This document shows, in pieces, positions 3,569 to 61,403 of a stretch of DNA of 64,000 bases. Position 1 is the stretch's first letter. The number at the start of each line of letters is the position of its first letter. Location of the stretch: assembly GCA_965204205.1 (NCBI GenBank), contig OZ241976.1, forward strand, positions 1,738,755 to 1,802,754. Reading direction: 5' to 3'. The notes under the pieces are model-generated. The model saw only the letters and a program-made list of their open reading frames with translations, searched no databases and was not told where the DNA came from. This DNA comes from an uncultured Candidatus Binatia bacterium (GTDB lineage: Bacteria > Desulfobacterota > Binatia > UBA9968 > JAJDTQ01). A program made the position numbers and the translations under genes.

Positions 3569-4954
3569 TCACGGTTTCAGATAGTCCTTCAGGTCCATAT
3601 TCCGCCACAGTTCCGGATCCGGCTCGATCTTCTTCTCGAACTCCTTCTCCACTGGCCGGGTGGCGTCGATCACCAGGTGGGTGGTCATGGGGCCGCGGCC
3701 GGTGCGGGCCTCGTTGTACGACACCGGATCGAGGTGCGCGCCCTTGACCCCGGGCATGATCAGCAGGTCCAGATCGGCGACCATGCGGGTGCTGAAAGCC
3801 CAGGCTACTTCCCGCTCGTTGTAGACGTCGACGTCGTCGTCCACCACCACCACGGTCTTGCCGTAGTTGTCGGTGGACACCGCCACCAGTCCGGCCTGCT
3901 TGCCCTCGCCGGGAACCCGCTGCTGCAACGAGACGTAGGTTCCCAGCCAGCCCATGGTGTTGACCGCCTTGACGGTGGGGAACTGGCTTCGCAACCGGTC
4001 GTACATGCTCATCTCGGCGCTCACGTTGGGGCACAGGTTGTGCTCCACGTGAGCCGAGTCCAGGTGATGATAGATGGCGTCCTTGCGCATGGTGATGGCG
4101 GTCACGTCGATGACGTAGCAAGGCTTGTCGCCGACCCCGTAGTAGCCCAGGTACTCGGCGTAGGGGCCGTCGGTGGACATGGTCGAGGCGTCGATGGTCC
4201 CCTCGATGACGATCTCCGCCTGCGCCGGCACCGGCACGTCCACGGTCTCGCCCTGGACCACCTCGAGGGACTCGCCAAGATAGCCGCCCATGAGGTCGAA
4301 CTCCACCACCGCCTTGCCCTGGGAGGCCTGCAGGATCGCCGAGTGGTGGCCGATGACCAGGGCCACCTCCATGGGGCGCCCCAGCTCGGCGCAGCGGCGG
4401 GCGATGTAGGCGCCGTCGTTGCCGGGATTGATCATGCAGCCGAGCCGGTTCCGGCCCATGACCAGGTGGCGGTAGATGCCGGCGTTGGGAACGCCGGTGT
4501 CCGGCCAGCGGGCGATCATAAAGCCGGCGCCGATGTACTTCCCGGCATCGAGCTTCGAGTTGTGGATGATCGGCAGCACGCTCAGGTCCACCGCGTCGCC
4601 GATGATTTTCTTCTCCTTGACCGGCGCGTCCGCCTCGTCCACCCACACCGGGTCTTCCCGTTGCGCCAGCTTCCTGCGCAGCACGTCGTAGATCTCTACC
4701 CGGCTCATGCTGCGCGGATCGCAGCCCAGCCCCCAGGCCAGCAGCTCGAAGGATCCGAACATGTTGGTGACCAGCGGCAGCGAGCTGCCCTTGATCTCGG
4801 GGCAGTAGATCACCGGGTTGCGCCCCTCGGCCGCGAGCTTGTGCTGAATGATGCCGATCTCCAGATACGGGTCCAGGGGCTTCGTGACCTCGACGTAGTT
4901 GTCGGGTCCGGTCTCCCGGACCGCGCGCAGGAAATCTCGCAAATTAGGGTTCAT
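3569..4954 (-). CDS. UbiD-family (prFMN-dependent) reversible decarboxylase
   Basis: 461 aa with full-length similarity to 3-octaprenyl-4-hydroxybenzoate carboxy-lyase / UbiD family. RBS AGGAGG precedes it. Confidence 0.9.
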   Translation of the reverse strand: MNPNLRDFLRAVRETGPDNYVEVTKPLDPYLEIGIIQHKLAAEGRNPVIYCPEIKGSSLPLVTNMFGSFELLAWGLGCDPRSMSRVEIYDVLRRKLAQREDPVWVDEADAPVKEKKIIGDAVDLSVLPIIHNSKLDAGKYIGAGFMIARWPDTGVPNAGIYRHLVMGRNRLGCMINPGNDGAYIARRCAELGRPMEVALVIGHHSAILQASQGKAVVEFDLMGGYLGESLEVVQGETVDVPVPAQAEIVIEGTIDASTMSTDGPYAEYLGYYGVGDKPCYVIDVTAITMRKDAIYHHLDSAHVEHNLCPNVSAEMSMYDRLRSQFPTVKAVNTMGWLGTYVSLQQRVPGEGKQAGLVAVSTDNYGKTVVVVDDDVDVYNEREVAWAFSTRMVADLDLLIMPGVKGAHLDPVSYNEARTGRGPMTTHLVIDATRPVEKEFEKKIEPDPELWRNMDLKDYLKP

Positions 4955-4973
4955 CTGACAGCCTCCTGATGCA

Positions 4974-4998
4974 GGGGCGGGTTTCTCGAACCCGCCCC
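4974..4998. repeat. family-B palindromic hairpin repeat (GGGGCGGGTTTCTCGAACCCGCCCC + CTACACC)
   Basis: Perfect GC-rich inverted repeat between the LLM stop and the UbiD start. Its CTA (4998-5000) is the LLM TAG stop. Related copies at 47078, 53355 and 55294. Confidence 0.6.
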
Positions 4999-5972
4999 TA
5001 CACCAACGGTAAGACCTCCTCTACGAAACGGCGGATCTGCGCCGGCTGGTCGTGTCCGGTAAAGCGCAGCACCGGTGTGCTGATGCCCATGTCCAGCCAT
5101 TCCCGCACCACTTCCGCGCATGCCTCCGGCGGACCGTGGGCCAGCCAGACCCGGATCACTTCCTCGCTGGGCGGGGCCAGCGGGTAATACGCCTGGAAGT
5201 AGTGCTTCGACTCCTCGTAGGCCGCCTGCCTGTCCTCGTTGATGTTGATCATGCCGTGCAGGCAGGTCTCGAAGCGGCCGAGATCCCGGCCCTGCTTGTC
5301 CGCGGCTTCCTGCATGAAGTCCCAACGGCGGCGAAACTCGTCGGGCGCCACCGCGTCCGTCATGTAGCCGTCGCCCAGCCGGATTACCCGCTCCAGCGCG
5401 CGCTCCACCAGCGGACTTCCGGCGAGGGGCCGGCGCGGGTTCACGGCGATCCAGATGGGGCAGGGGCGCTGCACGGGTTTGGGCAGGATGTCGTAGTCCT
5501 CCAACGTATAGAAGCGTCCGCGGTGGCGCACCTTACCCTCGCTCCACAGCGCGCGCAGCAGGGCTATCCCTTCCTCCAGCCGCGGCGCACGTTCCCTGGA
5601 GGTCTGCCCGAAAGCGCGCAGCTCGGGCTCGTGGCCACCGCCGATGCACGCGCCGAGGACCGTGCGGCCGCCGGAGACGTGGTCGAGGCTCGCCCACTGG
5701 ATCGCCAGCTCCACCGGATGGCGCAGCGGAAAGGTGGCCATGCAAATGGTGCCCAGCCGCACGCCGCGGGTGCGGGCGGCGAGATTGGAAAGCATGACGA
5801 TGGAATCGAGCCGGGGCTTGTGGATGAAGCTGTCGCCCACCCACACGGACTCGAAGGCGCCGGACTCCTCGGCCAGAGCCGCCGACGCGAACAGGTCGTC
5901 CACCGTCGTGAGCCCGAAAAGCACGCCGCGGTTGGGGAGGCTCAGGCCCCACCGTGTGGGCAAATCACGCAT
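4998..5972 (-). CDS. LLM-class (luciferase-like) flavin/F420-dependent oxidoreductase
   Basis: 324 aa with bacterial luciferase-like TIM-barrel family similarity. Confidence 0.85.
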   Translation of the reverse strand: MRDLPTRWGLSLPNRGVLFGLTTVDDLFASAALAEESGAFESVWVGDSFIHKPRLDSIVMLSNLAARTRGVRLGTICMATFPLRHPVELAIQWASLDHVSGGRTVLGACIGGGHEPELRAFGQTSRERAPRLEEGIALLRALWSEGKVRHRGRFYTLEDYDILPKPVQRPCPIWIAVNPRRPLAGSPLVERALERVIRLGDGYMTDAVAPDEFRRRWDFMQEAADKQGRDLGRFETCLHGMININEDRQAAYEESKHYFQAYYPLAPPSEEVIRVWLAHGPPEACAEVVREWLDMGISTPVLRFTGHDQPAQIRRFVEEVLPLV

Positions 5973-8536: not shown

Positions 8537-10270
8537 ATGAGCGACAAGAAGATTCTGAGCCGGGACAAACGGCGCTACCTGTTGCCGTCGGAGCGCGAGC
8601 TCGGGGCGGAAACCCACAGCTATCTGCCCGAGCTATGCGATCAGCTCCGCACCAAGAAAATCAACCGGCGGGACTTTTTGCGCCAAGCGGCGCTCTTGGG
8701 CATGACCGCGGGCGTAGCCTACGCCACCGCCGACAAGCTCATCGGCGGCGCTTTCGTGCCGTCCGTGCAGGCGGCCACGCCGAAACCCGGCGGGACGCTG
8801 CGGGTCTCCATGCGGATCCAGCAGGTGACCGACCCGGCGAGCTTCGACTGGACCGAGAAGTCCAACGTCGCGCGCTTCCTGGTGGAGCACCTGACCCGCA
8901 CCAAGGCGGACAACGTCACCGTTCCCTATCTCGCCGAGAAGTGGGAGGCCACCGACGACCTCAAGACCTGGGTGTTCCATCTGCGGAAGGACGTAACCTG
9001 GTCCAACGGCGACAAGTTCAACTCCGCCGATGTGGCCCACACGGTCAACCGCTGGCTCGACCCCAAGACCGGTTCCTCGAACCTCGGCCTGTTCAGCGCC
9101 ATGGTGGAGACCGTGAAAGGCCCGGACGGAAAGCCCATGAAGCGCGGCATCGCCAACGCGGTCGAGGTCATCGACGACCACACCATCCAGTTCAACCTCA
9201 AGCAGGCCGCCCTGGCCATGCCGGAGAACTTCTACAACTATCCCGCCGCCATCGTGCACCGGGGCTTCGGCAAGGACTACGCGGCCGACCTCTCCAAGAA
9301 CCCCATCGGCACCGGCCCGATGAAGCTGGAGGCGTTCGCGGTGGGCGAGAGGGCCATCCTCAAGAAGGCGCGGGAATGGTGGGCCGGACCGTTCCACCTG
9401 GACGAGATCCACTATTTTGACCACGGCGAGGACACCAACGCCTGGATCGCGGCGCTGGCGTCACAGCAGGTGGACATGGTCTACCGCCTTCCCAACGACG
9501 CCATCGACACCGTGAAACGGCTGCCCTTCGTGGACCTTCACGAAGCCACCACGGCGCAGACCGCGGTCATGCGCTTCCGCATTACCGAGAAGCCCTTCGA
9601 CAACCTCAAGCTGCGCCAGGCCATCGCCGCCTGCATGGACCACAAGGAGATCCTGGACAAGGCGTTCAAGGGACTCGGCCAGGTTGCCGAGAACCACCAC
9701 GTCTGCCCGATCCATCCGGACTACGCCGCGCTGCCGCCGCTCAAGCGGGACGTGGAAAAGGCCAAGAAGCTGCTGGCGGAGGCGGGCTACAAGGACGGCA
9801 TCACCGTCGAGATCGCCAACGGCGATACCGAAGGTCGGTGGATGACCGATGTGTGCGCGATATACAAGAACCAGCTCGCGCCCGCGGGCATCAACCTGAA
9901 GATCAACAAGATGCCGGCCAACCAGTACTGGGAGGTCTGGGACAAGGCGCCCTGGGGCTACACCGCTTGGACGCACCGTCCTCTCGGCACCATGGTGCTG
10001 GGTCTCGGTTACCGCTCCGGCGTGCCCTGGAACGAGACCGCCTACAACAACCCCAAGTTCGACGCTGCCCTCGACGACGCCGAGGCCACTCTCGACGTCA
10101 ACGAACGCAAGAAGAAGATGGCCGTCTGCGAGAAGATTCTCCAGGACGACGCCATCATCCCGCAGCCCTTCTGGCGGTCGGTCTTCAAGGCGGCGAACAA
10201 GCGGGTCAAGGGCCATCAGACCCATCCGACGCTGTATCATCAGTTCCATAACGTGTGGCTGGAAGGTTAG
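8537..10270 (+). CDS. ABC transporter substrate-binding protein, family 5 (DppA/OppA-like), Tat-secreted
   Basis: Twin-arginine signal RRDFLRQAALLGMTAGVAYA and an SBP_bac_5 fold. RBS GGAGG lies 8 nt upstream of the ATG at 8537. The longer ORF-track start at 8435 was rejected. Confidence 0.9.
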   Translation: MSDKKILSRDKRRYLLPSERELGAETHSYLPELCDQLRTKKINRRDFLRQAALLGMTAGVAYATADKLIGGAFVPSVQAATPKPGGTLRVSMRIQQVTDPASFDWTEKSNVARFLVEHLTRTKADNVTVPYLAEKWEATDDLKTWVFHLRKDVTWSNGDKFNSADVAHTVNRWLDPKTGSSNLGLFSAMVETVKGPDGKPMKRGIANAVEVIDDHTIQFNLKQAALAMPENFYNYPAAIVHRGFGKDYAADLSKNPIGTGPMKLEAFAVGERAILKKAREWWAGPFHLDEIHYFDHGEDTNAWIAALASQQVDMVYRLPNDAIDTVKRLPFVDLHEATTAQTAVMRFRITEKPFDNLKLRQAIAACMDHKEILDKAFKGLGQVAENHHVCPIHPDYAALPPLKRDVEKAKKLLAEAGYKDGITVEIANGDTEGRWMTDVCAIYKNQLAPAGINLKINKMPANQYWEVWDKAPWGYTAWTHRPLGTMVLGLGYRSGVPWNETAYNNPKFDAALDDAEATLDVNERKKKMAVCEKILQDDAIIPQPFWRSVFKAANKRVKGHQTHPTLYHQFHNVWLEG

Positions 10271-10281
10271 GAGCCTACGTT

Positions 10282-10316
10282 GCGGTGAACCCTGTAGGGG
10301 CGACCGGCCGGTGGCC
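10282..10316. repeat. REP-like hairpin between the SBP and permease genes
   Basis: CCTGTAGGGGC-(12 nt)-GCCCCTACAGG, an 11-bp perfect stem. This is the classic intra-operon position for a differential-stability element. Confidence 0.45.
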
Positions 10317-10378
10317 CCTACAGGCACCCTCCGCTTGTCCGGGTGCGCGTCCGCAACCAGGAAGCACGGGAGACTGAC

Positions 10379-11311
10379 ATGCCACAACTGATTCTGCGCC
10401 GCGTCGGCATGATGATCCTCATCATGCTGACGGTGGCGCTGCTTTTATTCCTCATGAACGAGGGCGATCCGCGGCTCATCGCCCGCAGCGTCCTGGGACC
10501 CTATGCCCAGGACCAGCAGCTTGATGCCTGGATCGTCCAGCATGGCTACGACCGCCCGATCCTGGTGCGTTACGTCGAATGGATCGGACGGGTGCTGTCC
10601 GGCGACCTCGGCGATTCCATCATCTACAAGCGCCCGGTCAACGAGATCTTCTGGGACCGCCTCGGCAATACCGGCATCCTCGCCGGCGTCACCTTCGTGG
10701 TCATGGTCGTCGTCGCTCTGACCCTGGGCGTCCTGGCCGGCATGAAGGAGGGCTCCGCCCAGGACCGGGTAATCTCGGTCTTCTCCATCACCACGACCTC
10801 CATACCGGAATATGCCAGCGCGGTGCTGCTGGCCTGGATCTTCGTCTTCGGGCTCGGCTGGCTCCCGGGCACCTCGTCCATGGTGACGGGGTTCAACGTG
10901 GTGGAGCTGATCCTGCCGGTGATGGTGTTGACCCTGTACGGTTTCGGCTACGTGGCGCGGATGACCCGGGCCTCCATGGCGGAAGTGATGACCAACCACT
11001 ACATCCGCACCGCCATGCTCAAGGGGCTGCCGTACCGCCACATCATCATGAAGCACGCGCTCCGCAACGCGCTGATCGCTCCGTTCACGGTCATCATGCT
11101 GCAGATCAACTGGCTCTTGTCCGGGGTGGTGGTGACCGAGTTCGCCTTCGGCTACAAGGGGTTCGGCGCGCTGCTGCTGGAGGCGGCGCTGCGCCGGGAC
11201 ATCTTCGTGATCGAGGCCTGCGGCACGGCGGCGGTGTTCGTGGCAGTCTTCACCCAGACCATCGGCGACGTCGGGTACACCTACCTGAACCCGAGAATCC
11301 GGTTCAAGTGA
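10379..11311 (+). CDS. ABC transporter permease (DppB/OppB-like)
   Basis: Multi-TM protein with a BPD_transp_1 signature. Start moved to MPQLILRR. Confidence 0.85.
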   Translation: MPQLILRRVGMMILIMLTVALLLFLMNEGDPRLIARSVLGPYAQDQQLDAWIVQHGYDRPILVRYVEWIGRVLSGDLGDSIIYKRPVNEIFWDRLGNTGILAGVTFVVMVVVALTLGVLAGMKEGSAQDRVISVFSITTTSIPEYASAVLLAWIFVFGLGWLPGTSSMVTGFNVVELILPVMVLTLYGFGYVARMTRASMAEVMTNHYIRTAMLKGLPYRHIIMKHALRNALIAPFTVIMLQINWLLSGVVVTEFAFGYKGFGALLLEAALRRDIFVIEACGTAAVFVAVFTQTIGDVGYTYLNPRIRFK

Positions 11312-12225: not shown

Positions 12226-14349
12226 ATGGCCGAATATAGCGAAGAGGCGCCGGTCCTCGAGATTTCCGGTCTCCGGCTCAGTTACTACACCCGGGCCGGC
12301 GAAATTCCCGCGGTAATGGACTTCGATCTCACCATACGGAAGGGCGAATCCGTCGGTCTGGTGGGCGAGTCCGGGTGCGGCAAATCCACCGTGGCCAACG
12401 GAATCATGCGCTACATGGGCAAGAACGGCGGCATCGTCGGCGGCACCATCAAGTTCAAGGGCCGGGACATGGCGGAGCTGAGCGAGGAGGAGATCCGGCG
12501 GGTCCGCGGCAAGGACATCGCCATGATCTACCAGGAGCCCATGGCCGCGCTCAATCCGAGCCTGACCATCGCCGCGCAGCTCATGGAAGTGCCTATGATC
12601 CACGAGGGGGTGAGTCAGGAAGAAGCCTTCCAGCGCGCCTTCGACATGCTGGCGGCGGTGAACATCCCAGACCCGAAACGCCTCATGGACTCCTACCCGC
12701 ACCAGGTCTCCGGCGGCCAGCAACAGCGCGTGGTGATCGCCATGGCGCTGCTTTCGCGGCCGGCGCTGCTGTTGCTGGACGAGCCCACCACGGCCCTGGA
12801 CGTCACGGTGGAGGCGGGGATCGTGGAGCTGATCGCCGAGTTGAGCAAGGAGTCCGGCGCGTCATTGCTGTACATCTCCCACAACCTCGGCCTGATGCTC
12901 GAAGTCTGTGACCGCATCTGCGTGATGTACTCGGGCGAGGTGGTGGAGGAAGGCCACATCGACTCCATCTTCTCCTGGCCCAAGCACCCCTACACCCACG
13001 GGCTGTTCGGCTGCATCCCGCTGCCCCACGCCGACAAGAATGCTCGCCCGCTCGCGGCCATCAAGGGGCAATTGCCGCTACCGCACCAGCGCCCCAAGGG
13101 TTGCTATTTCGGCCCGCGTTGCGAGTTCTTCGAGCCCGGCCGTTGCGACAACGACCATATTCCGATGGAGGGGGTGCACACCGATGACGATCCCGCGCAC
13201 CGGGTGCGTTGCCTGCGTTGGAACGAGATCGACCACGACGCCGCGGTAAGCAGCGACACCATCCGCGAGCCCATCGAGGTGGGTGATACGGTTCTCGAAG
13301 TCGACAACATGCGCAAGTACTACGACGTCAAGGAGAGCACGCTGGCGGCGCTCATCTCTCAGGAATCGGTGCGCCAGGTCAAGGCCAACGAAAGCATCAG
13401 CTTCGACGCCGGAGAAGGGGAGACCGTGGCCATCGTCGGCGAGTCGGGCTGCGGCAAGTCCACCTTCGCCAAGGTGCTGATGGGCCTGGAAACCGCCACC
13501 GACGGCGAGGTGCGCCTCGACGGCACCGACCTCGGCAGCATCGAGGTCAAGAAGCGCACCCCGGAGCAACTCGCGTCCTTGCAGATGGTGTTCCAGAACC
13601 CCAACGACACCCTCAACCCGTCCCACTCCGTCGGCTACCAGATCGGGCGGGTCATCAAGCGGTTCGGCATCGAGTCCGATCCGGCCAAGATCCAGGACCG
13701 GGTCCACAAGCTGCTGGACACGGTCAAGCTGCCGCGCGCCTTCGCCCACCGCAAGCCGCGCCAGCTCTCGGGCGGACAGAAACAAAGGGTGGGCATCGCC
13801 CGCGCCTTCGCCGGCAACCCCAAGACCGTCATCGCCGACGAACCCATCTCCGCGCTGGACGTGTCGGTGGCGGCGGCGGTGACCGAGCTGCTGATGGACA
13901 TCCAGCGCGAGCACCGCACCACGCTGCTGTTCATCAGCCACGACCTGTCCGCGGTGCGCTACCTCTCCGACCGCGTGGTGGTCATGTACCTCGGACAGAT
14001 CATGGAGCGGGGGACCACCGAGGAAGTATTCGCGCCGCCCTATCATCCCTATACGGAAGCGCTGCTCTCGGCGGTGCCCATCGCCGACCCGGAAGTGGAG
14101 AAACGCCGCATCGTGCTGGAAGGGAACCTGCCGAGCCCGTTGGACCCACCCAAGGGCTGCCCGTTCTCCACCCGCTGCCAGCGAAAGGTCGGCGACATCT
14201 GCGACAACGAGCCGCCCCCGGTACGGCTCGACACCGAGGGGCATTCCATCGCCTGCCACATCCCGCTGGAGGAGCTGCGCGAGGTGGAGCCGGTGATCAC
14301 CATCCCGGACCGGGATCTGGGCGGCGAGGGCAAACCCGCGGTGGTTTGA
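12226..14349 (+). CDS. Fused ABC transporter ATP-binding protein (DppD-DppF-like, two NBDs)
   Basis: Two Walker A motifs (GESGCGKST twice), two LSGGQ(Q/K)QR signatures and C-terminal oligopeptide-ATPase Cys motifs. Confidence 0.9.
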   Translation: MAEYSEEAPVLEISGLRLSYYTRAGEIPAVMDFDLTIRKGESVGLVGESGCGKSTVANGIMRYMGKNGGIVGGTIKFKGRDMAELSEEEIRRVRGKDIAMIYQEPMAALNPSLTIAAQLMEVPMIHEGVSQEEAFQRAFDMLAAVNIPDPKRLMDSYPHQVSGGQQQRVVIAMALLSRPALLLLDEPTTALDVTVEAGIVELIAELSKESGASLLYISHNLGLMLEVCDRICVMYSGEVVEEGHIDSIFSWPKHPYTHGLFGCIPLPHADKNARPLAAIKGQLPLPHQRPKGCYFGPRCEFFEPGRCDNDHIPMEGVHTDDDPAHRVRCLRWNEIDHDAAVSSDTIREPIEVGDTVLEVDNMRKYYDVKESTLAALISQESVRQVKANESISFDAGEGETVAIVGESGCGKSTFAKVLMGLETATDGEVRLDGTDLGSIEVKKRTPEQLASLQMVFQNPNDTLNPSHSVGYQIGRVIKRFGIESDPAKIQDRVHKLLDTVKLPRAFAHRKPRQLSGGQKQRVGIARAFAGNPKTVIADEPISALDVSVAAAVTELLMDIQREHRTTLLFISHDLSAVRYLSDRVVVMYLGQIMERGTTEEVFAPPYHPYTEALLSAVPIADPEVEKRRIVLEGNLPSPLDPPKGCPFSTRCQRKVGDICDNEPPPVRLDTEGHSIACHIPLEELREVEPVITIPDRDLGGEGKPAVV

Positions 14350-18375: not shown

Positions 18376-19371
18376 ATGCACTACCACAACGGACGCAAGC
18401 AGATCGTGGTGCTCGGCGGCGGCAGCGGCGGTATCGTCGCCGCCACCAAGCTCGGCCGGACCCTGGGCGCGGACCACGACATCATCCTCATCGACCGGCG
18501 CGCCGACCATGTCTACATGCCGGCTTTCCTGTTCGTGATGGTGGGGCAGAGACGTCCGGAGGACATCACGCGAAGGCTCAAGCGCCTGGAGAAACGCAAC
18601 ATCCGGGTCCTCCAGGCGGAGATCCTGGGGATCGATCCCGGGCGCCAGCAAGTCATCCTGGAAAGCACCGCCATCCCCTACGACTATCTGATCGTGTCCC
18701 TGGGCCTCGAAGTCAGGCCCGACCTGCTTCCGGGTTTCGCCGAAGGGGCGCATCACCCCTGGGAGATGGACGCGGCCCTGCGCCTCAAGACCACCCTGGA
18801 CAACTTCCGGGAGGGGCGCGTGCTGGTGGGTGTGCCGCAAGGCCCTTACCGCTGCCCGCCGGCGCCATACGAAGCCCAATGGATGCTCGACAGCTACTTC
18901 AAGGAACGCAACATCCGTGACCTGGTGGACCTGCAGTACTTCACCCGGGAGCCCGAACCCGCCGGGGAGGAACACATGCCCTCGGTGTGGATGGACGCCC
19001 AGAGCAAGAAGCGCGACGTCACCATCCATTACGACTTCATCGTGCAGTCCATCGATGCCGAGCGTAAGCGCGTCAAGGGCCTCTACGGCTACGAGCTTTC
19101 CTACGACCTGTTGTTCATGGTGCCGCCGCACCGCCCCTCCCGGGTACTTTACGACTGCGGGCTGGCGGAACGGGAGACCGGCATCCAGGTGGACTACGAC
19201 ACTCTGGAAACCAAGTGGGACAACGTCTACGCCATCGGCGACAATGCCGACATGCCGGCCTCTAAGGCCGGCGGCGTGGCACACCAGGAAGCCGACGTGG
19301 TGGCGGACAACCTGGTGGCGGAAATCACCGGGGAAGGGGAGTTGTCCACACTGCACCTCCACACCATATGA
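18376..19371 (+). CDS. Sulfide:quinone oxidoreductase-like FAD-dependent oxidoreductase. The conventional ORF ends at an in-frame TGA (see feature 19369-19533)
   Basis: N-terminal VVLGGGSGG FAD motif, a CPPAPYE motif resembling the SQR Cys160 region, and a YAIGD second FAD motif. The 331-aa conventional product lacks the C-terminal membrane-anchor region. Confidence 0.85.
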   Translation: MHYHNGRKQIVVLGGGSGGIVAATKLGRTLGADHDIILIDRRADHVYMPAFLFVMVGQRRPEDITRRLKRLEKRNIRVLQAEILGIDPGRQQVILESTAIPYDYLIVSLGLEVRPDLLPGFAEGAHHPWEMDAALRLKTTLDNFREGRVLVGVPQGPYRCPPAPYEAQWMLDSYFKERNIRDLVDLQYFTREPEPAGEEHMPSVWMDAQSKKRDVTIHYDFIVQSIDAERKRVKGLYGYELSYDLLFMVPPHRPSRVLYDCGLAERETGIQVDYDTLETKWDNVYAIGDNADMPASKAGGVAHQEADVVADNLVAEITGEGELSTLHLHTI

Positions 19372-19533
19372 CTGCTCTCATGCGGCGCGGGACGCGCCGC
19401 CGCCAACCGCACCACCTACCCTCAGGGATGGCCGCCCTTCGGCGCCACCGACTCACGGTCCTGGGGCCCGTCCCGCATGATCTACTGGAGCAAGGTCCTG
19501 TTCGAGAAATGGTGGCTCTGGCGTTACTTCTGA
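19369..19533 (+). other. Putative UGA-recoded (selenocysteine?) C-terminal extension of the SQR-like gene
   Basis: The same frame as the SQR remains open for 53 codons after TGA 19369-19371. Its translation is LLSCGAGRAAANRTTYPQGWPPFGATDSRSWGPSRMIYWSKVLFEKWWLWRYF, ending at TGA 19531-19533. The W/K/F-rich amphipathic tail is typical of monotopic SQR anchors. Confidence 0.4.
19382..19400 (+). promoter_or_regulatory. SECIS-like GC hairpin downstream of the in-frame UGA
   Basis: GCGGCGCG-GGA-CGCGCCGC, an 8-bp perfect stem that begins 10 nt after the UGA. Its apical loop is about 19-21 nt after the UGA. Confidence 0.3.
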
Positions 19534-19550: not shown

Positions 19551-19632
19551 GGCCTGTCCTGAGCCCTTCGACAGGCCTGTCCTGAGCTTGTCGAAGGGCT
19601 CAGGCCAGGCGTAACGAAGCGAAGACGAAGGA
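19551..19632. repeat. family-A MITE-like palindromic repeat (CCTGTCCTGAGC...GCTCAGG...GAAGCGAAGACGAAGGAC)
   Basis: Tandem/inverted copies of GTCCTGAGCCCTTCGACAGGC lie between the SQR-tail stop and the PDO start. Seven related copies occur elsewhere in the window. Confidence 0.6.
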
Positions 19633-19634
19633 CC

Positions 19635-29612: not shown

Positions 29613-29775
29613 GGCGTCCTTCGACTTCGCTCGGCCGGGCCTCGCTACGCCTGTCCTGAGCCTTGTCGAAGGGCTCAGGACGAAAGGGTTTTCATCGAAA
29701 TTCTTAAAGTGAATCGTTCGCCCTGAGCCCTTCGACAAGCTCAGGACAGGCTTTGCGAAGCGAAGTCGAAGGGCG
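29613..29775. repeat. family-A MITE-like nested palindromic element (about 160 bp; TIR CGTCCTTCGACTTCGC / GCGAAGTCGAAGGGCG)
   Basis: Outer TIRs, inner arms CCTGTCCTGAGCCTTGTCGAAGGGCTCAGGAC and an AT-rich centre. It lies between the recG start and the carB stop. Confidence 0.65.
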
Positions 29776-29840
29776 CCGGCCGGCGTCAGACGGAGTAATT
29801 CAACGGCCTGCCATGCCAAGAGCTGCCCACGGGTTCGAGT

Positions 29841-33074
<3,234 letters not shown>

Positions 33075-34881: not shown

Positions 34882-34970
34882 TTACGGAGATTCCCTGGTG
34901 TTCTTCGCTTGCGCGGGCGGGCTTGCGGCCCGTCCCTACACATTTAACACCTCAACCGGCAACTTTGAAA

Positions 34971-38061: not shown

Positions 38062-38104
38062 GCGCTCGACCTGCGTCGCATCCTTTCCGAGAAGTGAGCT
38101 GCCC

Positions 38105-38155
38105 TCCGACTCCGCTTCGCTACGCCTGTCCTGAGCTGGACGAAGGACTCAGGGA
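38105..38155. repeat. family-A repeat fragment (TCGCTACGCCTGTCCTGAGC...GAAGGACTCAGG)
   Basis: Shares the core of the family-A elements. Lies between the ugd start and the pfkB-kinase stop. Confidence 0.5.
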
Positions 38156-38173
38156 GAACGGTCAAGTTTCACA

Positions 38174-39079: not shown

Positions 39080-39112
39080 GTCACAAACCTCCCAAGTCCC
39101 GTAACCGTTCGT

Positions 39113-39150
39113 CCTGACCGTAGCGGAGCGAAGTCGAAGGACATCCTTTC
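39113..39150. repeat. family-A repeat fragment (CCGTTCGTCCTGACCGTAGCGGAGCGAAGTCGAAGGAC)
   Basis: Contains inner-arm and outer-TIR motifs of family A. Lies between the kinase start and the mtnP stop. Confidence 0.5.
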
Positions 39151-40094: not shown

Positions 40095-41195
40095 CTATGC
40101 GGTATTCACCGCAACGACGTCCAGCCCGCCGTGGGGACCCGGCGCTGCCGAGGCGTGATACAACTGCCCGCAGGCGGCCTGTATGTCGTCGCCCCGTGCC
40201 CGGCGCACGTGCGCCTGGACGCCGCGCGCGCGCAAGGTCTCTCCGAACGTCTCGATGGCATGCTCCGAGGACCGGCGGTAACCGCTCCCCTCGTGGGGGT
40301 TGAACGGTATCAGGTTCACCTTGCAGCGAATGCCCCGAAGCCTTGCCGCCAGTTCCGCTGCATCCCCGGCGCCGTCATTCAGGCCGTCGATCAGCAGGTA
40401 TTCGAAGGTGATGCGCTTGCGCCGCGGCACCGGCAGGGAACGGCAGCACTCCAGCAACTGCGCGACGGAGTATTTCCGGTTGACCGGCATGAGATCCGAA
40501 CGCACCTCGTCCCGCACCGAATGGAGCGAGATGGCCAGGTTGACGCGGGTTTCCTCCATGAGCCTGCGCATCTGCGGCAGCAGGCCCACGGTGGAAACCG
40601 TGATCTTGCGGGGCGAGATGCCCATGCCGCTGCGGGCGTCGGTGATGACCTCCAGCGCCCCGCGGGTCGCCTCGTAATTGGCCAGCGGCTCGCCCATGCC
40701 CATGAAGACCAGGTTCGAGATTCGCGTGTCCTCCGGGCAGCGGCGCTGCACTTCCAGCACCTGATCCACGATCTCCGCCTGGCTGAGATTGCGCCTCAGT
40801 CCCATTCGCGCGGTGGCACAGAAGTCGCAGCCCAGCCCACAGCCCACCTGTGTCGATACGCAAAGCGTGACCCGGTCCGTTTCCGGTATGTAGACAGTCT
40901 CGACGACGGCGCCGTCGCGCAGACGCAGCAGGTACTTGACGGTACCGTCCCTGGAACGGTGTTGCTGCCGCACCGCCAGGCTTCCGATGTCGAACTCCCG
41001 CGCCAGCGCTCGCCGCAGCTCCCGCGGAACGTCGGTCATGTCCTCGAACGCGGTCGCGTGCTTCTGGAACAGCCACCGCCGTATCTGATCGGCTCGATAC
41101 GCGGGAAGACCGCGGGCGTCGAGCCATGCGCTCAACTCGGCATGGCCCAGGTCAGCGAGCGGGCGTCGGATATCGCTGGAGCGGACGTGTTCCAT
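40095..41195 (-). CDS. rlmN: 23S rRNA (adenine2503-C2)/tRNA methyltransferase RlmN (radical SAM)
   Basis: CxxxCxxC (CGLGCDFC) and an RlmN/Cfr C-terminus. True start at MEHVRSSD (41193-41195). The ORF-track start reads through a repeat (SKGSGRTG). Confidence 0.9.
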   Translation of the reverse strand: MEHVRSSDIRRPLADLGHAELSAWLDARGLPAYRADQIRRWLFQKHATAFEDMTDVPRELRRALAREFDIGSLAVRQQHRSRDGTVKYLLRLRDGAVVETVYIPETDRVTLCVSTQVGCGLGCDFCATARMGLRRNLSQAEIVDQVLEVQRRCPEDTRISNLVFMGMGEPLANYEATRGALEVITDARSGMGISPRKITVSTVGLLPQMRRLMEETRVNLAISLHSVRDEVRSDLMPVNRKYSVAQLLECCRSLPVPRRKRITFEYLLIDGLNDGAGDAAELAARLRGIRCKVNLIPFNPHEGSGYRRSSEHAIETFGETLRARGVQAHVRRARGDDIQAACGQLYHASAAPGPHGGLDVVAVNTA

Positions 41196-41208
41196 TGTCC
41201 AAATATGG

Positions 41209-41345
41209 CGTCCTTCGACTTCGCTCCGCTCAGGACGAACGGCTGCAAGGACGATGATTCCCGTTCGTCCTGAGCCCTTCGACAAGCTCGGGACAGGCTT
41301 GTCGAAGGGCCCAGGACAAGGCTTCGCGGAGCGAAGACGAAGGAG
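41209..41345. repeat. family-A MITE-like nested palindromic element
   Basis: TIRs CGTCCTTCGACTTCGC / GCGAAGACGAAGGAGG enclose inner GTCCTGAGCCCTTCGACAAGCTCGGGACAGGC palindromes. Confidence 0.65.
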
Positions 41346-41366
41346 GCCATACCGGGCGGCGGTTCG

Positions 41367-41792
41367 CTACGACCCGGACGACTGGATCTCGTCGGCGTTG
41401 AAGAAGAACGCGATCTCCGCCGCGGCGGTTTCGGGGGCATCGGAACCGTGCACCGCGTTGGCCTCCACGTCGGTGCCCCAGTCCTTGCGGATAGTCCCCG
41501 AATCGGCCTTGGCCGGATCCGTCGCGCCCATGATTTCACGGTTCCGGGCGATGGCTCCATCCCCCTCCAGCACCGACACGAAAATAGCGCCCCTGGACAT
41601 GTAGTCGGTGAGGCTGTTGAAGAACGGACGCTCCCGGTGCACTTCGTAGAAGGCCTCGGCCCGCTTCTTGTCCAGGCGGGTCAGCCTTGCCGCCACCACC
41701 TTGAGTCCCGCGTGCTCGAAGCGGCTCAGGATATCGCCAATCAACCCCTTGGCCACGGCCTCCGGCTTGATGATCGACAGTGTTCTCTCCAT
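41367..41792 (-). CDS. ndk: Nucleoside diphosphate kinase
   Basis: 141 aa with the NDK signature (NAVHGSD). Start [11 protein letters not shown] is internal to the 300-aa ORF-track artefact. The upper coordinate is accurate to 1 nt. Confidence 0.9.
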
Positions 41793-46378: not shown

Positions 46379-47089
46379 TTGAGCGTGCGCATGGACAACG
46401 TGTCGAAGGTGTACGGGCTTTTGTGGGCCCTGCGGGAGGTGCGCCTGGAGGTCGCCGCCGGGGAATGGGTGGCGCTCCTGGGGCCCAACGGCGCCGGCAA
46501 GACCACCCTGCTGAGACTGCTGGCGGCACTGGCCTACCCTACCGGCGGCGCCATCGAGCTGTTCGGCCAAGAGCTCTCCTACGGCAACTCCCCGCTGCGC
46601 GGCAGGATCGGGTTCCTGGCCTCGGGCGCCCATCTCTACGACAACCTCACGGTCGCCGAAAACCTCCGGTTCTTCGTCTCCCTCTATCGCGGGGAGACCG
46701 CCGCGGAAGAGCGGGCCGAGGCCCTGAACGACGTCGGCCTGCACGAGAAGGCCGGCGAGTACGTCTCGGCGCTGTCCCTGGGCATGCGCTGCCGGCTGGC
46801 CATCGCCAAGTGGCGGCTGGTGAACCCCGGGCTGCTGCTGGTGGACGAGCCCTACGGCGCGCTGGACTCATCCGGCGTGGACATGCTGAACCGGTTTCTG
46901 GAATCGCTGTGCGCCGCCGGCGGTATCGTGGTGCTGGCCACCCACGACATCCCGCGCGTCCTCGAGCGCTGCTCCCGGGCCGTTATCCTGAACCGGGGCC
47001 GGATCGTCTTCGACGAACCCAGGCGGGACCCCTGGAAAAGCTTCCATGATGCGTTCGACGCCCTCGACCCACCCGACGGGCGGGTTTGA
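46379..47089 (+). CDS. ccmA: Cytochrome c biogenesis (heme exporter) ATP-binding protein CcmA
   Basis: Walker A GPNGAGKTT. First gene of a ccm cluster. Its stop codon lies inside a family-B hairpin repeat. Confidence 0.85.
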   Translation: MSVRMDNVSKVYGLLWALREVRLEVAAGEWVALLGPNGAGKTTLLRLLAALAYPTGGAIELFGQELSYGNSPLRGRIGFLASGAHLYDNLTVAENLRFFVSLYRGETAAEERAEALNDVGLHEKAGEYVSALSLGMRCRLAIAKWRLVNPGLLLVDEPYGALDSSGVDMLNRFLESLCAAGGIVVLATHDIPRVLERCSRAVILNRGRIVFDEPRRDPWKSFHDAFDALDPPDGRV

Positions 47090-47097
47090 AACCCGCC
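47078..47097. repeat. family-B hairpin GGGCGGGTTTGAAACCCGCC (+CTACACCTGCAC flank)
   Basis: Perfect palindrome. Its TGA (47087-47089) is the ccmA stop. Confidence 0.6.
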
Positions 47098-47183
47098 GCT
47101 ACACCTGCACGGATGGCACACAAGTTCTACCGCCAGGGCACCACGAAGCAGGCCCGCCCCTACGCCCGCATGGACGGCACACT

Positions 47184-53325: not shown

Positions 53326-53348
53326 TACACGAACGGGAGAGGCGTCCG

Positions 53349-53388
53349 GTGTAGGGGGCGGTTTCAAACCCGCCCGTACCTGCACACC
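53349..53388. repeat. family-B hairpin (reverse orientation: GGTGTAG-GGGGCGGTTTCAAACCCGCCC-GTACCTGCACACC)
   Basis: Lies between convergent ccmH/I and the flavin reductase. Likely also serves as a bidirectional terminator. Confidence 0.6.
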
Positions 53389-55276: not shown

Positions 55277-55293
55277 GTTCCTTCCTCCATGCC

Positions 55294-55314
55294 GGGCGGG
55301 TTTGAAACCCGCCC
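55294..55314. repeat. family-B hairpin GGGCGGGTTTGAAACCCGCCC
   Basis: Perfect palindrome between the ggt stop and the hydrolase start. Confidence 0.6.
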
Positions 55315-55335
55315 CGCCCCCTCGCCGCGGCTCGC

Positions 55336-56980: not shown

Positions 56981-57024
56981 GCGTCCTGAGCGTAGCGAGG
57001 CGTAGCCGAGCGAAGTCGAAGGAC
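56981..57024. repeat. family-A repeat (CGTCCTGAGCGTAGCGAGGCGTAGCCGAGCGAAGTCGAAGGACG)
   Basis: Palindromic. Lies between the ggt start and the amidohydrolase stop. Confidence 0.6.
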
Positions 57025-57054
57025 GCCCCTTATTCCATTCTCGATCTGCCACCG

Positions 57055-58086
57055 CTACGAGCCGCGTTCCTCGATGTGCAGGATGCGGGCGGCGTTGCCG
57101 CCCAGTATCCGTTCCTTCGCCTCCGGCTCCAGTCCCAAGTCGTCGAGGGCCTTGAGGCTGTTCCGTATGAAGCCGCAGCCGTCTTCCGGCCCGTAGGGGT
57201 AGTTGGTCCCGAACACCAACTGCTCCGGTCCGAAGAAGTCCATCACGCACTTGAGCGTGTTGGCGCGATGGTCCGCGGTGTCCACGAAGAACTTGCGAAA
57301 CGAGTCCAGCGGGTTCTCCTGGAGACCATAGCGCTCGCGCATCTCGTCGGTCCGGCCCGTGTAAATGTTGATGGCTCGCTGCCCGAAGAAGGCCAGCACG
57401 CCGCCCACGTCGGCCACCACGAAGGGCAGGGTCGGGAAGCGCTCGATCACCCGCCCGTACACCAGCCGGGTCATGGCGACGGTGCTGTCGAAGGCCCAGC
57501 CGTAGATCAGGATCGGCATGATGTCGAGGCCTACCGCCTCGGTGGCGAGCGGTGCGGTGGGATGAAGGTACACGGGAAGGTCGTACTCCGCCAGCTTCTC
57601 GTAGATGGGGAAGAAAGCCTCGTCGTCCAGCGGCCGGCCGTTGAGATTGGTGAAACAGCCGAACCCGCGGAGGCCCAGTTCCTGGACCGCCCGGTCGAGC
57701 TCCTCCAGCGACGCCCCGATGGAGGCCGTGGGCAGGGTCGCCAGCCCGACGAAGCGGTCCGAATGCCGGCGGCACATCTCGGCCACCTCGTCGTTGGCCA
57801 CCCGGGCCATGGCCACGGCGTCATCGGGCTCGTAGCGGTCCGCGCCCGGCGCCGGAATGCTCACCACCTGCACGTCCACTCCCTCGCGGTCCATGTGCTC
57901 AAGCCGCTGCTCGACGTTCCGGCCCTTGAAGATCGCCGTGTTGATGCGGCACCCCAGGGTCTTGTCGTAGAGGTAAGCCATGCCGCTGTAGGGATCCGGC
58001 TCCTCCAGGATCACGGCGCCGTCCCGCTCGTGCATGGTCTGCATGTAATGCTCGGGGAAGATATGGCTTTGGAAGTCTATGATCAT
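57055..58086 (-). CDS. Amidohydrolase-2 family protein (ACMSD-like metal-dependent hydrolase/decarboxylase)
   Basis: 343 aa in the amidohydrolase_2 fold. A second member of this family in the window. Confidence 0.85.
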   Translation of the reverse strand: MIIDFQSHIFPEHYMQTMHERDGAVILEEPDPYSGMAYLYDKTLGCRINTAIFKGRNVEQRLEHMDREGVDVQVVSIPAPGADRYEPDDAVAMARVANDEVAEMCRRHSDRFVGLATLPTASIGASLEELDRAVQELGLRGFGCFTNLNGRPLDDEAFFPIYEKLAEYDLPVYLHPTAPLATEAVGLDIMPILIYGWAFDSTVAMTRLVYGRVIERFPTLPFVVADVGGVLAFFGQRAINIYTGRTDEMRERYGLQENPLDSFRKFFVDTADHRANTLKCVMDFFGPEQLVFGTNYPYGPEDGCGFIRNSLKALDDLGLEPEAKERILGGNAARILHIEERGS

Positions 58087-58119
58087 GGCTTCTTTTCCGG
58101 AAGGTCGAGCCCGTGGACC

Positions 58120-58335
58120 TCAGAGCCCGCGCACGACACGCGGAAACCCTTGTGGCGACTCCGGTTCCGACTTGACGGTGCGGGAGCCCACCGAACTGCC
58201 GCAACGCTGGCAACTGTAGTCGTAGAGGTCGCCGTCGGGAAGGACCACCAGCAGCCGTTCGCGGACCGGCATCGCCTGCCCGCACTTGTTGCAGTAGAGC
58301 AACGACGCCGACAGCTGTTCGAAGCTCTTCTCCAT
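58120..58335 (-). CDS. Small zinc-ribbon hypothetical protein (CNKC...CQRC)
   Basis: 71 aa with good GC3 bias and two CxxC pairs. Ends 33 nt before the amidohydrolase start. Confidence 0.5.
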   Translation of the reverse strand: MEKSFEQLSASLLYCNKCGQAMPVRERLLVVLPDGDLYDYSCQRCGSSVGSRTVKSEPESPQGFPRVVRGL

Positions 58336-58360
58336 CGCAGGCCTCAGGCCGGACGCGGCG

Positions 58361-60442: not shown

Positions 60443-60472
60443 GTGTCGACCTCCCCTTGAACTGACTTCCTC

Positions 60473-60585
60473 GTCCTTCGACTTCGCGACGCTGCGCGTC
60501 GCTACGCTCGGGACGAACGGAGGGCGCCTTTGCAACCGTTCGTCCCGAGCGTAGCGGGGCGTCAGCCGAGCGAAGTCGAAGGACG
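60473..60585. repeat. family-A MITE-like nested palindromic element (about 113 bp)
   Basis: Outer TIRs CGTCCTTCGACTTCGC / GCGAAGTCGAAGGACG. Inner arms CGCTACGCTCGGGACGAACGG / CCGTTCGTCCCGAGCGTAGCG. Confidence 0.65.
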
Positions 60586-60611
60586 CGATTCCATTGGACT
60601 CGGACGGGCTC

Positions 60612-61403
60612 CTACGACCTCCGCTTGCGCGCCGAGGGAGCCGCGTTCTTCTCGTAAATAAGCCGTAACCCTTCCAACGTCAAGAATTCGTCCACGTCCT
60701 CGATGACCGTGGATTCGTGGGCAATGAGCGACGCCACGCCGCCGGTCGCCACCACCTTTGCCTTGATCCGGTTCTCTCTCTCGATGCGATGCACGATGCC
60801 GTCCACCAGGCCCACGTAGCCGTAGTAGATGCCCGACTGGATGGAGTGGACGGTGGATTTGCCGATGACGCTCGAAGGACACACGACCTCCACCCGCGGA
60901 AGCTTCGAGGCGCGCTGAAACAGCGCTTCGACGGCGATCATCAGGCCGGGGGCGATCAGACCCCCCAAGTACTCCCCCTTGTCGGACACGCAGTCGAAGG
61001 TCGTGGCGGTGCCGAAGTCGATGACCACGCAGGCGGCGCCGAAGCGGTCATAGGCGGCGACCCCGTTGGCGATCCGGTCCGCGCCGACGTCCTGGGGACT
61101 GTCGTAGAGGATCGGCATTCCGGTCCTGAGCCCCGGGCCCACCAGCAACGGCTTGACGCCGAAGAACTTCCGCCCCAACTCATCGATCATCCCCACCATG
61201 GGGGGAACGACGCAGGAAACGATGATGGCGTCGATGGCGTCGCTGCCAATGTCCTGGGCGGCGGCCAGATGACCGATGAGCGCACCGTATTCGTCCACCG
61301 TGCGTTCAGGCTGGGTCACCAGGCGCCAGTGCGTCACCAGCTCCCGGCCCCGGTAGACACCCAGCACCATGTTGCTGTTTCCGATGTCGATGGCCAGCAG
61401 CAT
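60612..61403 (-). CDS. coaX: Type III pantothenate kinase
   Basis: 263 aa with N-terminal LAIDIGNS and an ASKHA fold. Confidence 0.9.
   Translation of the reverse strand: MLLAIDIGNSNMVLGVYRGRELVTHWRLVTQPERTVDEYGALIGHLAAAQDIGSDAIDAIIVSCVVPPMVGMIDELGRKFFGVKPLLVGPGLRTGMPILYDSPQDVGADRIANGVAAYDRFGAACVVIDFGTATTFDCVSDKGEYLGGLIAPGLMIAVEALFQRASKLPRVEVVCPSSVIGKSTVHSIQSGIYYGYVGLVDGIVHRIERENRIKAKVVATGGVASLIAHESTVIEDVDEFLTLEGLRLIYEKNAAPSARKRRS

Follow-up and report, generated by a model that had tools for sequence, protein, structure and literature searches.

The window analysed here, a 64,000-nucleotide stretch of contig OZ241976.1 with a GC content of 65.8%, comes from an uncultured member of the Binatia, phylum Binatota. 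Its PfkB protein is 93% identical to a protein in a Binatia-type genome that also carries the repeat unit described below, and a 645-kb metagenome scaffold encodes a protein with 95% identity to its MBL-rhodanese protein (protein searches). Our subject is a family of short palindromic repeats, which we call family A, whose copies sit in permissive gaps inside operons, 12-65 nucleotides (nt) past a stop codon. The gene names first assigned around them (recG/carB, ugd/pfkB, pfkB/mtnP, rlmN/ndk, ggt/amidohydrolase and EF-G/coaX) agree with Pfam, and all genes of the syntenic blocks carry housekeeping Pfam domains. The initial annotation placed every copy between minus-strand genes; all copies are indeed intergenic with co-directional neighbors, but the genes at 19.55 kb lie on the plus strand.

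Shuffle controls indicate that the similarity between copies is far above chance for all three motifs originally reported as shared. With up to two mismatches allowed for this motif, CGTCCTTCGACTTCGC has nine matches in the window against 0.08 expected, CGCTACGCTCGGGACGAACGG has four against 0, and CCTGTCCTGAGC has eight against 0.6. Repeat detection in the window likewise ties the listed sites together (D2, D4, D10, I1-I6, I24). Searches by nhmmer with two profiles, built respectively on 24 distinct 32-nt units found in relatives and on four C-type modules, gave significant matches at seven window sites only. An eighth site, a fragment near 58090, had also been claimed; the profiles find nothing significant in that region (best E = 0.27, at 58335-58355), and the count is therefore seven. 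With 66% GC and many imperfect repeats in the window, the copies might be suspected of being no feature at all and of owing their likeness to chance, to GC-rich stretches of low complexity or to conserved protein-coding DNA. The probability of this is negligible, as chance is rejected by the shuffles, every copy lies outside Pfam-supported genes, and the orthologous spacers of relatives lack copies although the flanking genes are conserved. The family also recurs in related genomes. The seven copies are as follows, with folding free energies (dG) in kcal/mol and z-scores; the strand is given where one is assigned.

19551-19634, strand not assigned: site 1, composite of two C-type modules (CCTGTCCTGAGC / CTTGTCGAAGG / GCTCAGG) and one outer unit end, GCGAAGACGAAGGACC; begins 17 nt past the stop at 19533 of a gene for an SQR/FCSD-like flavoprotein and abuts the ATG at 19635 of the MBL-rhodanese gene, both genes on the plus strand; dG about -51
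29613-29776, strand not assigned: site 2, full REPIN-like composite of outer end, C-type module, 27-nt AT-rich spacer, inverted C-type module and outer end; between the carB stop at 29841 and the recG ATG at 29612, abutting the latter; dG -118 to -120, z -13 to -15
38103-38161, minus strand: site 3, degenerate, with a decayed outer end CCCTCCGACTCCGC, CGCTACG and one C-type module; between the pfkB stop at 38174 and the ugd start at 38061; no stable fold (z about 0), profile E = 5.6e-8 and 5.4e-4
39105-39144, plus strand: site 4, single unit CCGTTCGTCCTGACCGTAGCGGAGCGAAGTCGAAGGACA, equal to the right half of a REPIN; nhmmer E = 1.7e-13; between the mtnP stop at 39179 and the pfkB start at 39079
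41207-41346, strand not assigned: site 5, unit, 18-nt spacer, inverted inner arm, C-type modules and a diverged outer end GCGAAGACGAAGGAGG; between the ndk stop at 41367 and the rlmN start at 41195; dG -97 to -99, z about -11
56982-57027, plus strand: site 6, one unit with a long loop, CGTCCT-GAGCGTAGCGAGGCGTAGCCGAGCGAAGTCGA-AGGACG, bordered left and right by the outer flanks (GAATGG ... CC); between the amidohydrolase stop at 57055 and the ggt start at 56952
60472-60586, strand not assigned: site 7, clean REPIN-like element of a left unit at 60472-60520 (inverted), a 15-nt spacer at 60521-60535 and a right unit at 60536-60586, with an inner GTAG-footed hairpin or loop in each unit; between the coaX stop at 60612 and the EF-G start at 60442; dG -92 to -97 as RNA (z about -10) and -58 to -62 as DNA (z about -10)

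Along the direction of transcription, the distance from the upstream stop to the element is 17, 64, 12, 34, 20, 27 and 25 nt at sites 1 to 7, and that from the element to the next start is 0, 0, 41, 25, 11, 29 and 29 nt.

The stop codon upstream of site 1 had been placed at 19371, and the reading frame runs on to 19533. An in-frame TGA at 19369-19371 (..HLHTI*LLSCGAGR..) is followed by 54 in-frame codons up to RYF* at 19531-19533, and both the TGA and the frame behind it are kept in two relatives (L207 at about 9731-9900 and L209 at about 9815-9980; L-numbers are labels of the collected comparison loci, with L210-L310 being IMG/VR contigs), with mostly synonymous changes. About 14 nt past the TGA lies a GC hairpin, GCGGCGCG-GGA-CGCGCCGC, that resembles a bacterial selenocysteine insertion sequence. 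The TGA, where gene callers end the flavoprotein gene, is thus a candidate selenocysteine codon. Elsewhere in the window, ARAGORN calls an 85-nt tRNA-Gly(tcc) at 40526-40610 on the plus strand, which has no Rfam tRNA match. As the call falls within the coding region of the minus-strand rlmN, we take it for a probable false positive.

Unit anatomy and covariation

The three motifs reported initially are pieces of a single unit, which was defined from 120 units extracted by regular expression from the window and all collected loci. Its stem has 6 base pairs (bp), CGTCCT/AGGACG, and its loop is conserved on either side, with GAGCG-NAG as the left strand and (C)GAAGTCGA as the right. Between them the middle of the loop varies in length (1, 6 or 11 nt), so that the loop can be written GAG-(CGNAG)n-TCGA with n = 1-3; in other units an inner GC-rich hairpin, preceded by G(T/N)AG and capped by a GNA triloop, fills the middle instead. 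Unit lengths range from 27 to 61 nt, with a 5-nt step between 27 and 32 nt, and the commonest 32-nt unit is without a real inner hairpin. About 15 distinct inner hairpins are more stable than their shuffles. Their stems differ completely between copies and taxa with compensatory changes, and the caps are almost always GCA, GAA, GGA or GTA closed by a C-G pair, as in these examples:

CGACGC/GCGTCG: 60.5 kb copy
CCCGGC/GCCGGG: L201
CGCCGC/GCGGCG: L066
CACCC/GGGTG: Anaerolineales metagenome-assembled genome (MAG)
CATCGAAC/GTTCGATG: Eremiobacterota MAG

GTAG (or GNAG) stands directly 5′ of the inner hairpin in some units, such as GTAG-CGACGC-GCA-GCGTCG at 60.5 kb and others in L201, L066 and L114. 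The C-type module, CCTGAGC-CTT-GTCGAAGG-GCTCAGG, has the same frame with another middle, followed by an inverted copy of its own first half.

A full element consists of two inverted units around a 15-27 nt spacer that together form one long hairpin, for example ATGG-CGTCCT-loop'-AGGACG-AACGG-spacer-CCGTT-CGTCCT-loop-AGGACG-CCAT. As RNA, the full copies at 29.6, 41.2 and 60.5 kb have folding energies between -92 and -120 kcal/mol, with z from about -10 to -15. The single, half or decayed copies at 57.0, 39.1 and 38.1 kb fold weakly under nearest-neighbor parameters. The description of all copies as nested inverted repeats accordingly holds for four of them (29.6, 41.2, 60.5 and 19.55 kb) and fails for the three that are single, half or degenerate units. 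Because a full element is a pair of inverted units, it appears to carry terminal inverted repeats (TIRs). The lone unit at 57.0 kb, which retains both outer flanks, is the expected remnant of a deletion between the CGTCCT stems of such a dimer; a deletion route has likewise been described by Quentin et al. for ‘double-foot’ REPs (PMC6006769).

The stem covaries while the loop is conserved. At the pair beside CCT/AGG we count 129 T-A, 20 C-G, 23 T.G and 5 C.A, with 155 Watson-Crick pairs compared with 114 +/- 4.6 after shuffling. For the wider core the pairs were counted in 121 distinct 32-mers. The pair outside CCT/AGG is UA in 59, CG in 40, GC in 7, UG in 8 and other in 6; the next pair out is GC in 33, AU in 18 and GU in 12; and positions beyond it are unpaired. 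None of 500 shuffles reached the covariation score of this set.

Gain, loss and replacement at orthologous junctions

Syntenic loci at 84-90% nt identity allowed a junction-by-junction comparison:

coaX>EF-G: window, 114-nt element plus about 37 nt; L121, empty, TAG-C-AGGGGAGG...ATG; L122, unrelated 50 nt
amidohydrolase>ggt: window, one 44-nt unit; L121, 215-nt multi-unit composite; L122, none
ndk>rlmN, mtnP>pfkB, pfkB>ugd and carB>recG: window, family A; L205/L209, empty spacers of 2-42 nt

At amidohydrolase>ggt the window and L121 share the exact flanks, GGGG on one side and CCATTYCAAC on the other. The rlmN>mtnP junction is likewise empty in L205/L209. At mtnP>pfkB, L201 has a full two-unit copy of family A where the window has a single unit and L205 is empty. 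Other repeat families occupy carB>recG in L201, L203 and L207, and five junctions that are empty in L205 are filled in L201 and L203 by family A or by four other REP-like families. At 19.55 kb, L209 has an empty 21-nt spacer, TGA-TGCCCTTTCGACCCGGTCTCC-ATG. The window keeps CGCCACTTCTGCGACACGG, then has an 82-nt element, then the ATG, and L207 has a rearranged variant copy whose right junction, GAAGGACC followed directly by ATGATCC, is identical to that of the window. Gain, loss, resizing and replacement of copies thus all happen within about 5-15% nt divergence. The gaps at these junctions have been colonized independently and repeatedly by several REP-like families, and copies have been resized in place; the empty sites, the resized copies and the presence of other families at the same junctions indicate mobility and fast turnover.

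The start of the MBL-rhodanese gene in L209 (10001-10018, ATG ATC CTG AGC GAA) contains ATCCTGAGCGAA, which is identical to the conserved left strand of the repeat unit, and in the window and L207 the repeat is inserted exactly before that ATG; coincidence or a target mimic is possible. The deposited MBL-rhodanese gene call in L207, the closest relative (P0121, 10001-11056), is six codons longer than its homologues, and since the called start falls within the repeat we regard it as over-long, a start misannotation induced by the repeat.

Binatia relatives host at least five or six REP-like families. Those at the junctions of L201, L203 and L207 include a CCCTCTCCCTCTGGGAGAGGGTAGGGGTGAGGG-type family, the GTAG-footed GTAGGGGCGACC...GGTCGCCCC, ACGGGCGGGTTCAGACCCGCCCGT, GTCATTCCCGC...GCGGGAATGAC, and GTCATCCCGGACTTGATCCGGGATCCA of the classical CGTC type; example positions are L201 7442-7790, 8743-8909 and 19349-19462, and L207 20629-20716. 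The window itself contains a second family, a canonical GTAG-footed REP, GTGTAGCGGCGGGTTTCAAACCCGCCCGT and variants, at 47076-47106, 53348-53377, 34914-34943 and 55293-55322, which is found also in L121 and L203. Its 47.1 kb copy overlaps the end of the ccmA open reading frame (ORF), with the ccmA stop codon inside the repeat loop. A third, ‘double foot’ family, GTAGGGGCGACCGGCCGGTGGCCCCTAC, lies at 10293-10320 in a gap between plus-strand genes; it occurs also in L121 (about 12960-12990) and L201 (about 10910-11020), where it fills pfkB>ugd. The presence of canonical GTAG-footed REPs in the window shows that REP dynamics operate in this genome.

The junctions bear directly on a reading of the copies as miniature inverted-repeat transposable elements (MITEs), to which the initial annotation had likened them. 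In the classical form of this reading the copies would be deletion derivatives of an insertion sequence (IS) with a DDE transposase, moved through their TIRs and flanked by target-site duplications (TSDs). Full copies do have 16-nt inverted termini, their length (114-163 nt) falls within the MITE size range, and copies are insertion-polymorphic. However, direct repeats that could represent TSDs flank neither the three full copies nor the insertion at 19.55 kb, where a filled and an empty site can be compared cleanly (window versus L209). The flanks instead extend the palindrome (GAATGG before and CCATTC after the copies). The supposed TIR is the outer half of two inverted copies of one unit, and that internally repeated unit is also found by itself, at 39.1 and 57.0 kb, and as part of tandem or nested arrays. 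We saw no IS whose ends match, and blastn within the OZ241979.1 loci gave only repeats of about 108 nt, none of them IS-sized. A classical MITE is therefore very improbable.

Another possibility is that the copies are cis-acting RNA elements which control operon mRNA as a 3′-exonuclease barrier, an RNase III site or a device for translational uncoupling. The position of all seven between co-directional genes, shortly past a stop, would suit such a role, as would the very stable RNA duplexes predicted for the full copies and the fact that three copies end 0-11 nt before the next start codon. On the other hand, the orthologous junctions of close relatives do without the element or carry unrelated repeats, from which it follows that no gene pair depends on family A. 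Single units occur in both orientations relative to transcription; there is no U-tract and no Rfam match; a start codon follows only 7 of 106 outer ends; and GNA triloops with CGNAG pentamers are a DNA-type rather than an RNA stability signature (PMC13037366). We consider a selected RNA function unlikely, though clearly less remote than a MITE.

Several narrower RNA-level candidates were rejected. The copies had also been proposed to act as intercistronic terminators, but no T-run follows them, and none is among the terminator-like sites called in 28-42.5 kb or 53-62 kb. No curated RNA family matched at the Rfam 15 gathering score, either in the window or at 18 core-bearing loci of other phyla, and relaxing the threshold to E <= 10 on the 60.5 kb copy gave only sub-threshold look-alikes of miRNA hairpins (60.4-60.65 kb). 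As a donor of a Shine-Dalgarno sequence or start codon the element fares no better, since the 7 of 106 outer ends in Binatia-type loci with a long ORF within 15 nt behind them are not above control. Readings as hammerhead or other ribozyme cores or as K-turn-like motifs were dropped by eye, the required conserved bases being absent.

Family A is best explained as a lineage-enriched set of non-autonomous palindromic repeats of the repetitive extragenic palindromic (REP)/REP doublet (REPIN) type in uncultured Binatia, arranged as a mosaic like that of bacterial interspersed mosaic elements (BIMEs) and acting through single-stranded DNA (ssDNA) hairpins; we put the probability of this explanation at about 0.75. 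It partly supports the earlier interpretation, which was right in kind: the repeats are non-coding and multi-copy, recur in related genomes, and vary in presence and size at orthologous junctions, as expected of a REP/BIME-like mobile repeat. The involvement of ssDNA is suggested by the lack of TSDs, which is typical of HUH/Y1-type REP systems (PMC6006769), by the match of the CGNAG pentamers and C-GNA-G caps to very stable DNA mini-hairpin sequences, and by the canonical GTAG-footed REPs that share the window. The units would spread in trans as ssDNA hairpins, likely mobilized by an HUH/Y1 nuclease of the REP-associated tyrosine transposase (RAYT) kind or by another enzyme that reads the conserved loop, and a dimer could become a single unit through deletion between its repeated stems. 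Inserted copies would be co-transcribed, with full ones presumably forming RNA duplexes of about 50 bp that might change how the operon mRNA is processed or degraded; plausibly they would hold up exonucleases, be cut by RNase III, or occlude the start regions of recG and the MBL gene. Such effects would be a side effect and not the reason for the elements' existence, as the free gain and loss at orthologous junctions argues.

Four observations weigh against this explanation. First, the main stem is without an unpaired GT[AG]G foot; the GTAG is internal and absent from many units. Second, no RAYT or Y1 transposase is linked to family A in the window or the collected loci, 1.78 Mb in total (tblastn with E. 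coli RayT; a two-sequence RAYT profile), a sample too small to exclude the cognate enzyme that had been suggested. Third, the wobble asymmetry points to opposite strands at two neighboring stem positions and so does not single out a folding strand. Fourth, intergenic flanks are too diverged to place most insertion boundaries to the base. The sole RAYT in the collected loci, in the Methylococcaceae locus L035, is unrelated and flanked by its own GTAG REP. There the RAYT gene (4127-4675, minus strand, in the region 3990-5480) sits amid its GTAG REPs, GTAGCCCGGATGGAGCGAAGCGTAATCCGGG, whose loop also contains GAGCGAAGCG, and a 116-nt repeat with a CCTGAGCGAAGTCGAAGG hairpin adjoins the cluster.

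For this genome the repeats are ordinary furniture, and where the window is dense in operons nearly all of its enlarged intergenic gaps are accounted for by the family. Some annotation trouble is explained by it as well, as the start codons at 19635 and 29612 abut a repeat and P0121 extends six codons into one, and the family offers a fast-evolving marker for strain typing in uncultured Binatia.

Distribution of the hairpin core

An exact search for the 16-mer GCGAAGTCGAAGGACG, with one genome per species, returned at least 120 loci. Among the matches listed, multi-hit loci and plus/minus pairs 60-180 nt apart concentrate in Candidatus Binatia MAG chromosomes and similarly in MAGs labelled Thermodesulfobacteriota, Deltaproteobacteria (sponge-derived) and Syntrophobacterales, which share the unit CCGTTCGTCCTGAGCGTAGCGAAGCGAAGTCGAAGGACG(CCAT). 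Carriers of a multi-hit or paired 16-mer include OZ241979.1, OZ251459.1, OZ253480.1, OZ244869.1 and OZ220712.1, and the plus/minus pairs are found in L030, L033, L044, L066, L070, L074, L075, L079, L095, L106 and L113. In the coaX neighborhood of distant relatives (at most 72% amino acid identity, GC 0.46-0.73) the family is essentially absent. On OZ241979.1 (L015, L017, L046, L060, L099, L115 and L120) the unit lies within the repeat of about 108 nt, ...GGAAACTCTGAACAATTGCCCC-unit-GCGCTTTCCCATAGGGAGAGGCGCCTCAAGCCGGAAT..., which is a different composite subfamily.

The core of the unit, CCTGAGCG...AGTCGAAGG, reaches much further and was found in at least seven phyla and in 101 viral contigs. 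In 99 of the 140 matches listed for the right-hand 16-mer, CCTGAGCG lies no more than 70 nt upstream, compared with 4-7 in control windows. The carriers listed include Alphaproteobacteria (Henriciella, Hyphomonas, Sphingomonadaceae), Gammaproteobacteria (Lysobacter, Thermomonas, Methylococcaceae), Bacteroidota, Chloroflexota, Acidobacteriota, Eremiobacterota and Myxococcota, and they often have several core copies per 8-kb locus. Among IMG/VR contigs, 101 with GC from 0.24 to 0.74 contain the minimal 18-mer, CCTGAGCGAAGTCGAAGG, whereas none contains the Binatia-specific 28-mer. Because the 18 bases of the core are invariant by search design, the evidence lies in its abundance, the co-occurrence of both halves and the covarying stem. 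Many viral matches belong to one group of related high-GC contigs that resemble prophages or gene transfer agents (GTAs). No recurrent neighbor gene of the core emerged in the viral and genome loci, where clusters merely mirror these related contigs, and a literature search for the core strings found no bacterial description, the only meaningful match being the Cycas Bpu consensus discussed below.

A tentative and broader view is that the Binatia repeats are a local expansion of a very widespread, apparently undescribed hairpin module (a covarying stem of 4-6 bp closed by CCT/AGG, with a GAG-(CGNAG)n-TCGA loop) that would form an ssDNA mini-hairpin and has an echo in the Bpu elements of gymnosperm mitochondria; we hold this possible, but a good deal less probable than its converse. 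Conservation of the loop across phyla and viral contigs would imply recognition by one conserved enzyme or host factor, for which an HUH nuclease without a GTAG requirement or a primase or ssDNA-binding function would be candidates. If true, the module would be a general mobile or replication-linked signal and not a set of lineage-specific REPs.

A further alternative is that the repeat is a replication-related ssDNA signal, an ssi-like primase or primosome site or another site for a host ssDNA-binding factor, which chromosomes and phages would retain for that reason. The C-GNA-G type of mini-hairpin does occur at the phage G4 origin and at RSF1010 ssiA (CCGAAGG) (PMC13037366), viral contigs that differ widely in GC share the minimal 18-mer, and a loop that is conserved while its stem covaries fits recognition by a protein. 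Yet the presence of copies is not conserved at any given locus, many of the viral matches stem from one related prophage/GTA-like group, and on closed chromosomes we see no rule relating orientation to position, although the loci are too few to tell. We rate a replication signal as very improbable, marginally below the MITE.

Family A is a new REP-like family from a phylum that has received little study and is ordinary in itself; it is the broad distribution of the mini-hairpin core that merits follow-up. The wider interest lies in a conserved 18-base hairpin, made up of DNA mini-hairpin pentamers and with no known enzyme, that spans distant phyla, viral contigs and possibly plant mitochondria. 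If the link holds, what moves ‘orphan’ REP families becomes directly testable in closed Binatia genomes with many copies.

Comparison with known systems

One resemblance is to the Bpu element of Cycas mitochondria, whose consensus is quoted as AAGGTTATCCCTTTCCTGAGCGTAGCGAAGGGAAGG in PMC8297867 (citing Chaw et al. 2008). Judged by that published consensus, Bpu and the commonest Binatia unit have an uninterrupted run of 17 identical bases in common, TCCTGAGCGTAGCGAAG, as well as a CCT/AGG-closed stem, a GAG-(CGTAG)(CGAAG) loop and the CCTGAGC (Bpu10I) site, and Bpu occurs in hundreds of dispersed copies. The quoted Ginkgo variant, CCCGAGCGTAGCGGAG, matches the CCCGAG...GCGGAG variants in the window (60.5 kb) and in relatives. 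Unlike the Binatia unit, Bpu as described there resides in a seed-plant organelle, is 36 nt long with AAGG terminal direct repeats, and is without the TCGAAG pentamer. We found no literature linking Bpu to bacterial repeats, and the resemblance, a comparison of consensus sequences, is a lead and not a demonstrated relationship.

Mini-hairpin DNA is very stable and nuclease-resistant and has been studied in oligonucleotides and a few replication origins (PMC13037366, PMC3201870). Hairpins of d(GCGNAGC) melt at 70-76 C (PMC13037366), and their stability depends on the C-G closing pair (PMC3201870). Family A has the corresponding pentamers, (G)CGTAG(C) and (G)CGAAG(C), and the caps C-GCA-G, C-GAA-G, C-GGA-G and C-GTA-G, and from these motifs its repeats would be predicted to form mini-hairpins.

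The CGTC-tagged REP superfamily (Di Nocera et al. 2013, PMC3733652) is like family A in the CGTC start seen in Binatia, the predominance of head-to-head dimers, a spread over several phyla with Alphaproteobacteria prominent, and the lack of a known dedicated transposase. Its members have an unpaired tag, an 8-9 bp stem starting with AT, a 4-5 nt loop and a CCA tail (PMC3733652). In family A, by contrast, the CGTC is paired, the stem has 4-6 bp and the loop 12-40 nt, which places it outside the superfamily as defined. Units of other phyla start with TGTC-AT or CCTC-AT, so a distant relationship is possible; the core strings are absent from the text and supplements of PMC3733652.

E. coli BIMEs, like family A, are mosaics of a few motifs (here the outer end, the inner arm and the C-type module) in varied number and order, placed in intergenic gaps within operons. 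The BIME motif grammar (Y, Z1 and Z2 REPs with L, S, r and l) and the binding of IHF and gyrase are specific to enterobacteria, and the sequences are unrelated to family A.

The closest parallel is with the REP/REPIN systems of Pseudomonas and Enterobacteria, which are served by RAYT/TnpA_REP (PMC3116915, PMC3337134, PMC6006769). Family A differs in that its main stem has no unpaired 5′ GT[AG]G foot, the GTAG being internal before an optional inner hairpin; in that the loop strands rather than the stem are conserved, with the loop growing by CGNAG pentamers; and in the lack of a linked RAYT. REPIN-RAYT systems are described, in the RAREFAN preprint (10.1101/2022.05.22.493013), as mostly vertically inherited, whereas the core of family A spans many phyla and viral contigs. 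In both, short extragenic imperfect palindromes occur in many copies, past stops between co-directional genes, with several families per genome, with singletons arising by decay or central deletion, and with no target-site duplication. In both, the mobile-looking unit is a pair of inverted units with a short spacer that makes one long hairpin. In sum, family A has the dispersed extragenic palindromes of a REP, at seven sites in 64 kb and in many copies in Binatia-type chromosomes, and at 29.6, 41.2 and 60.5 kb it has the two inverted units in one long hairpin that characterize a REPIN.

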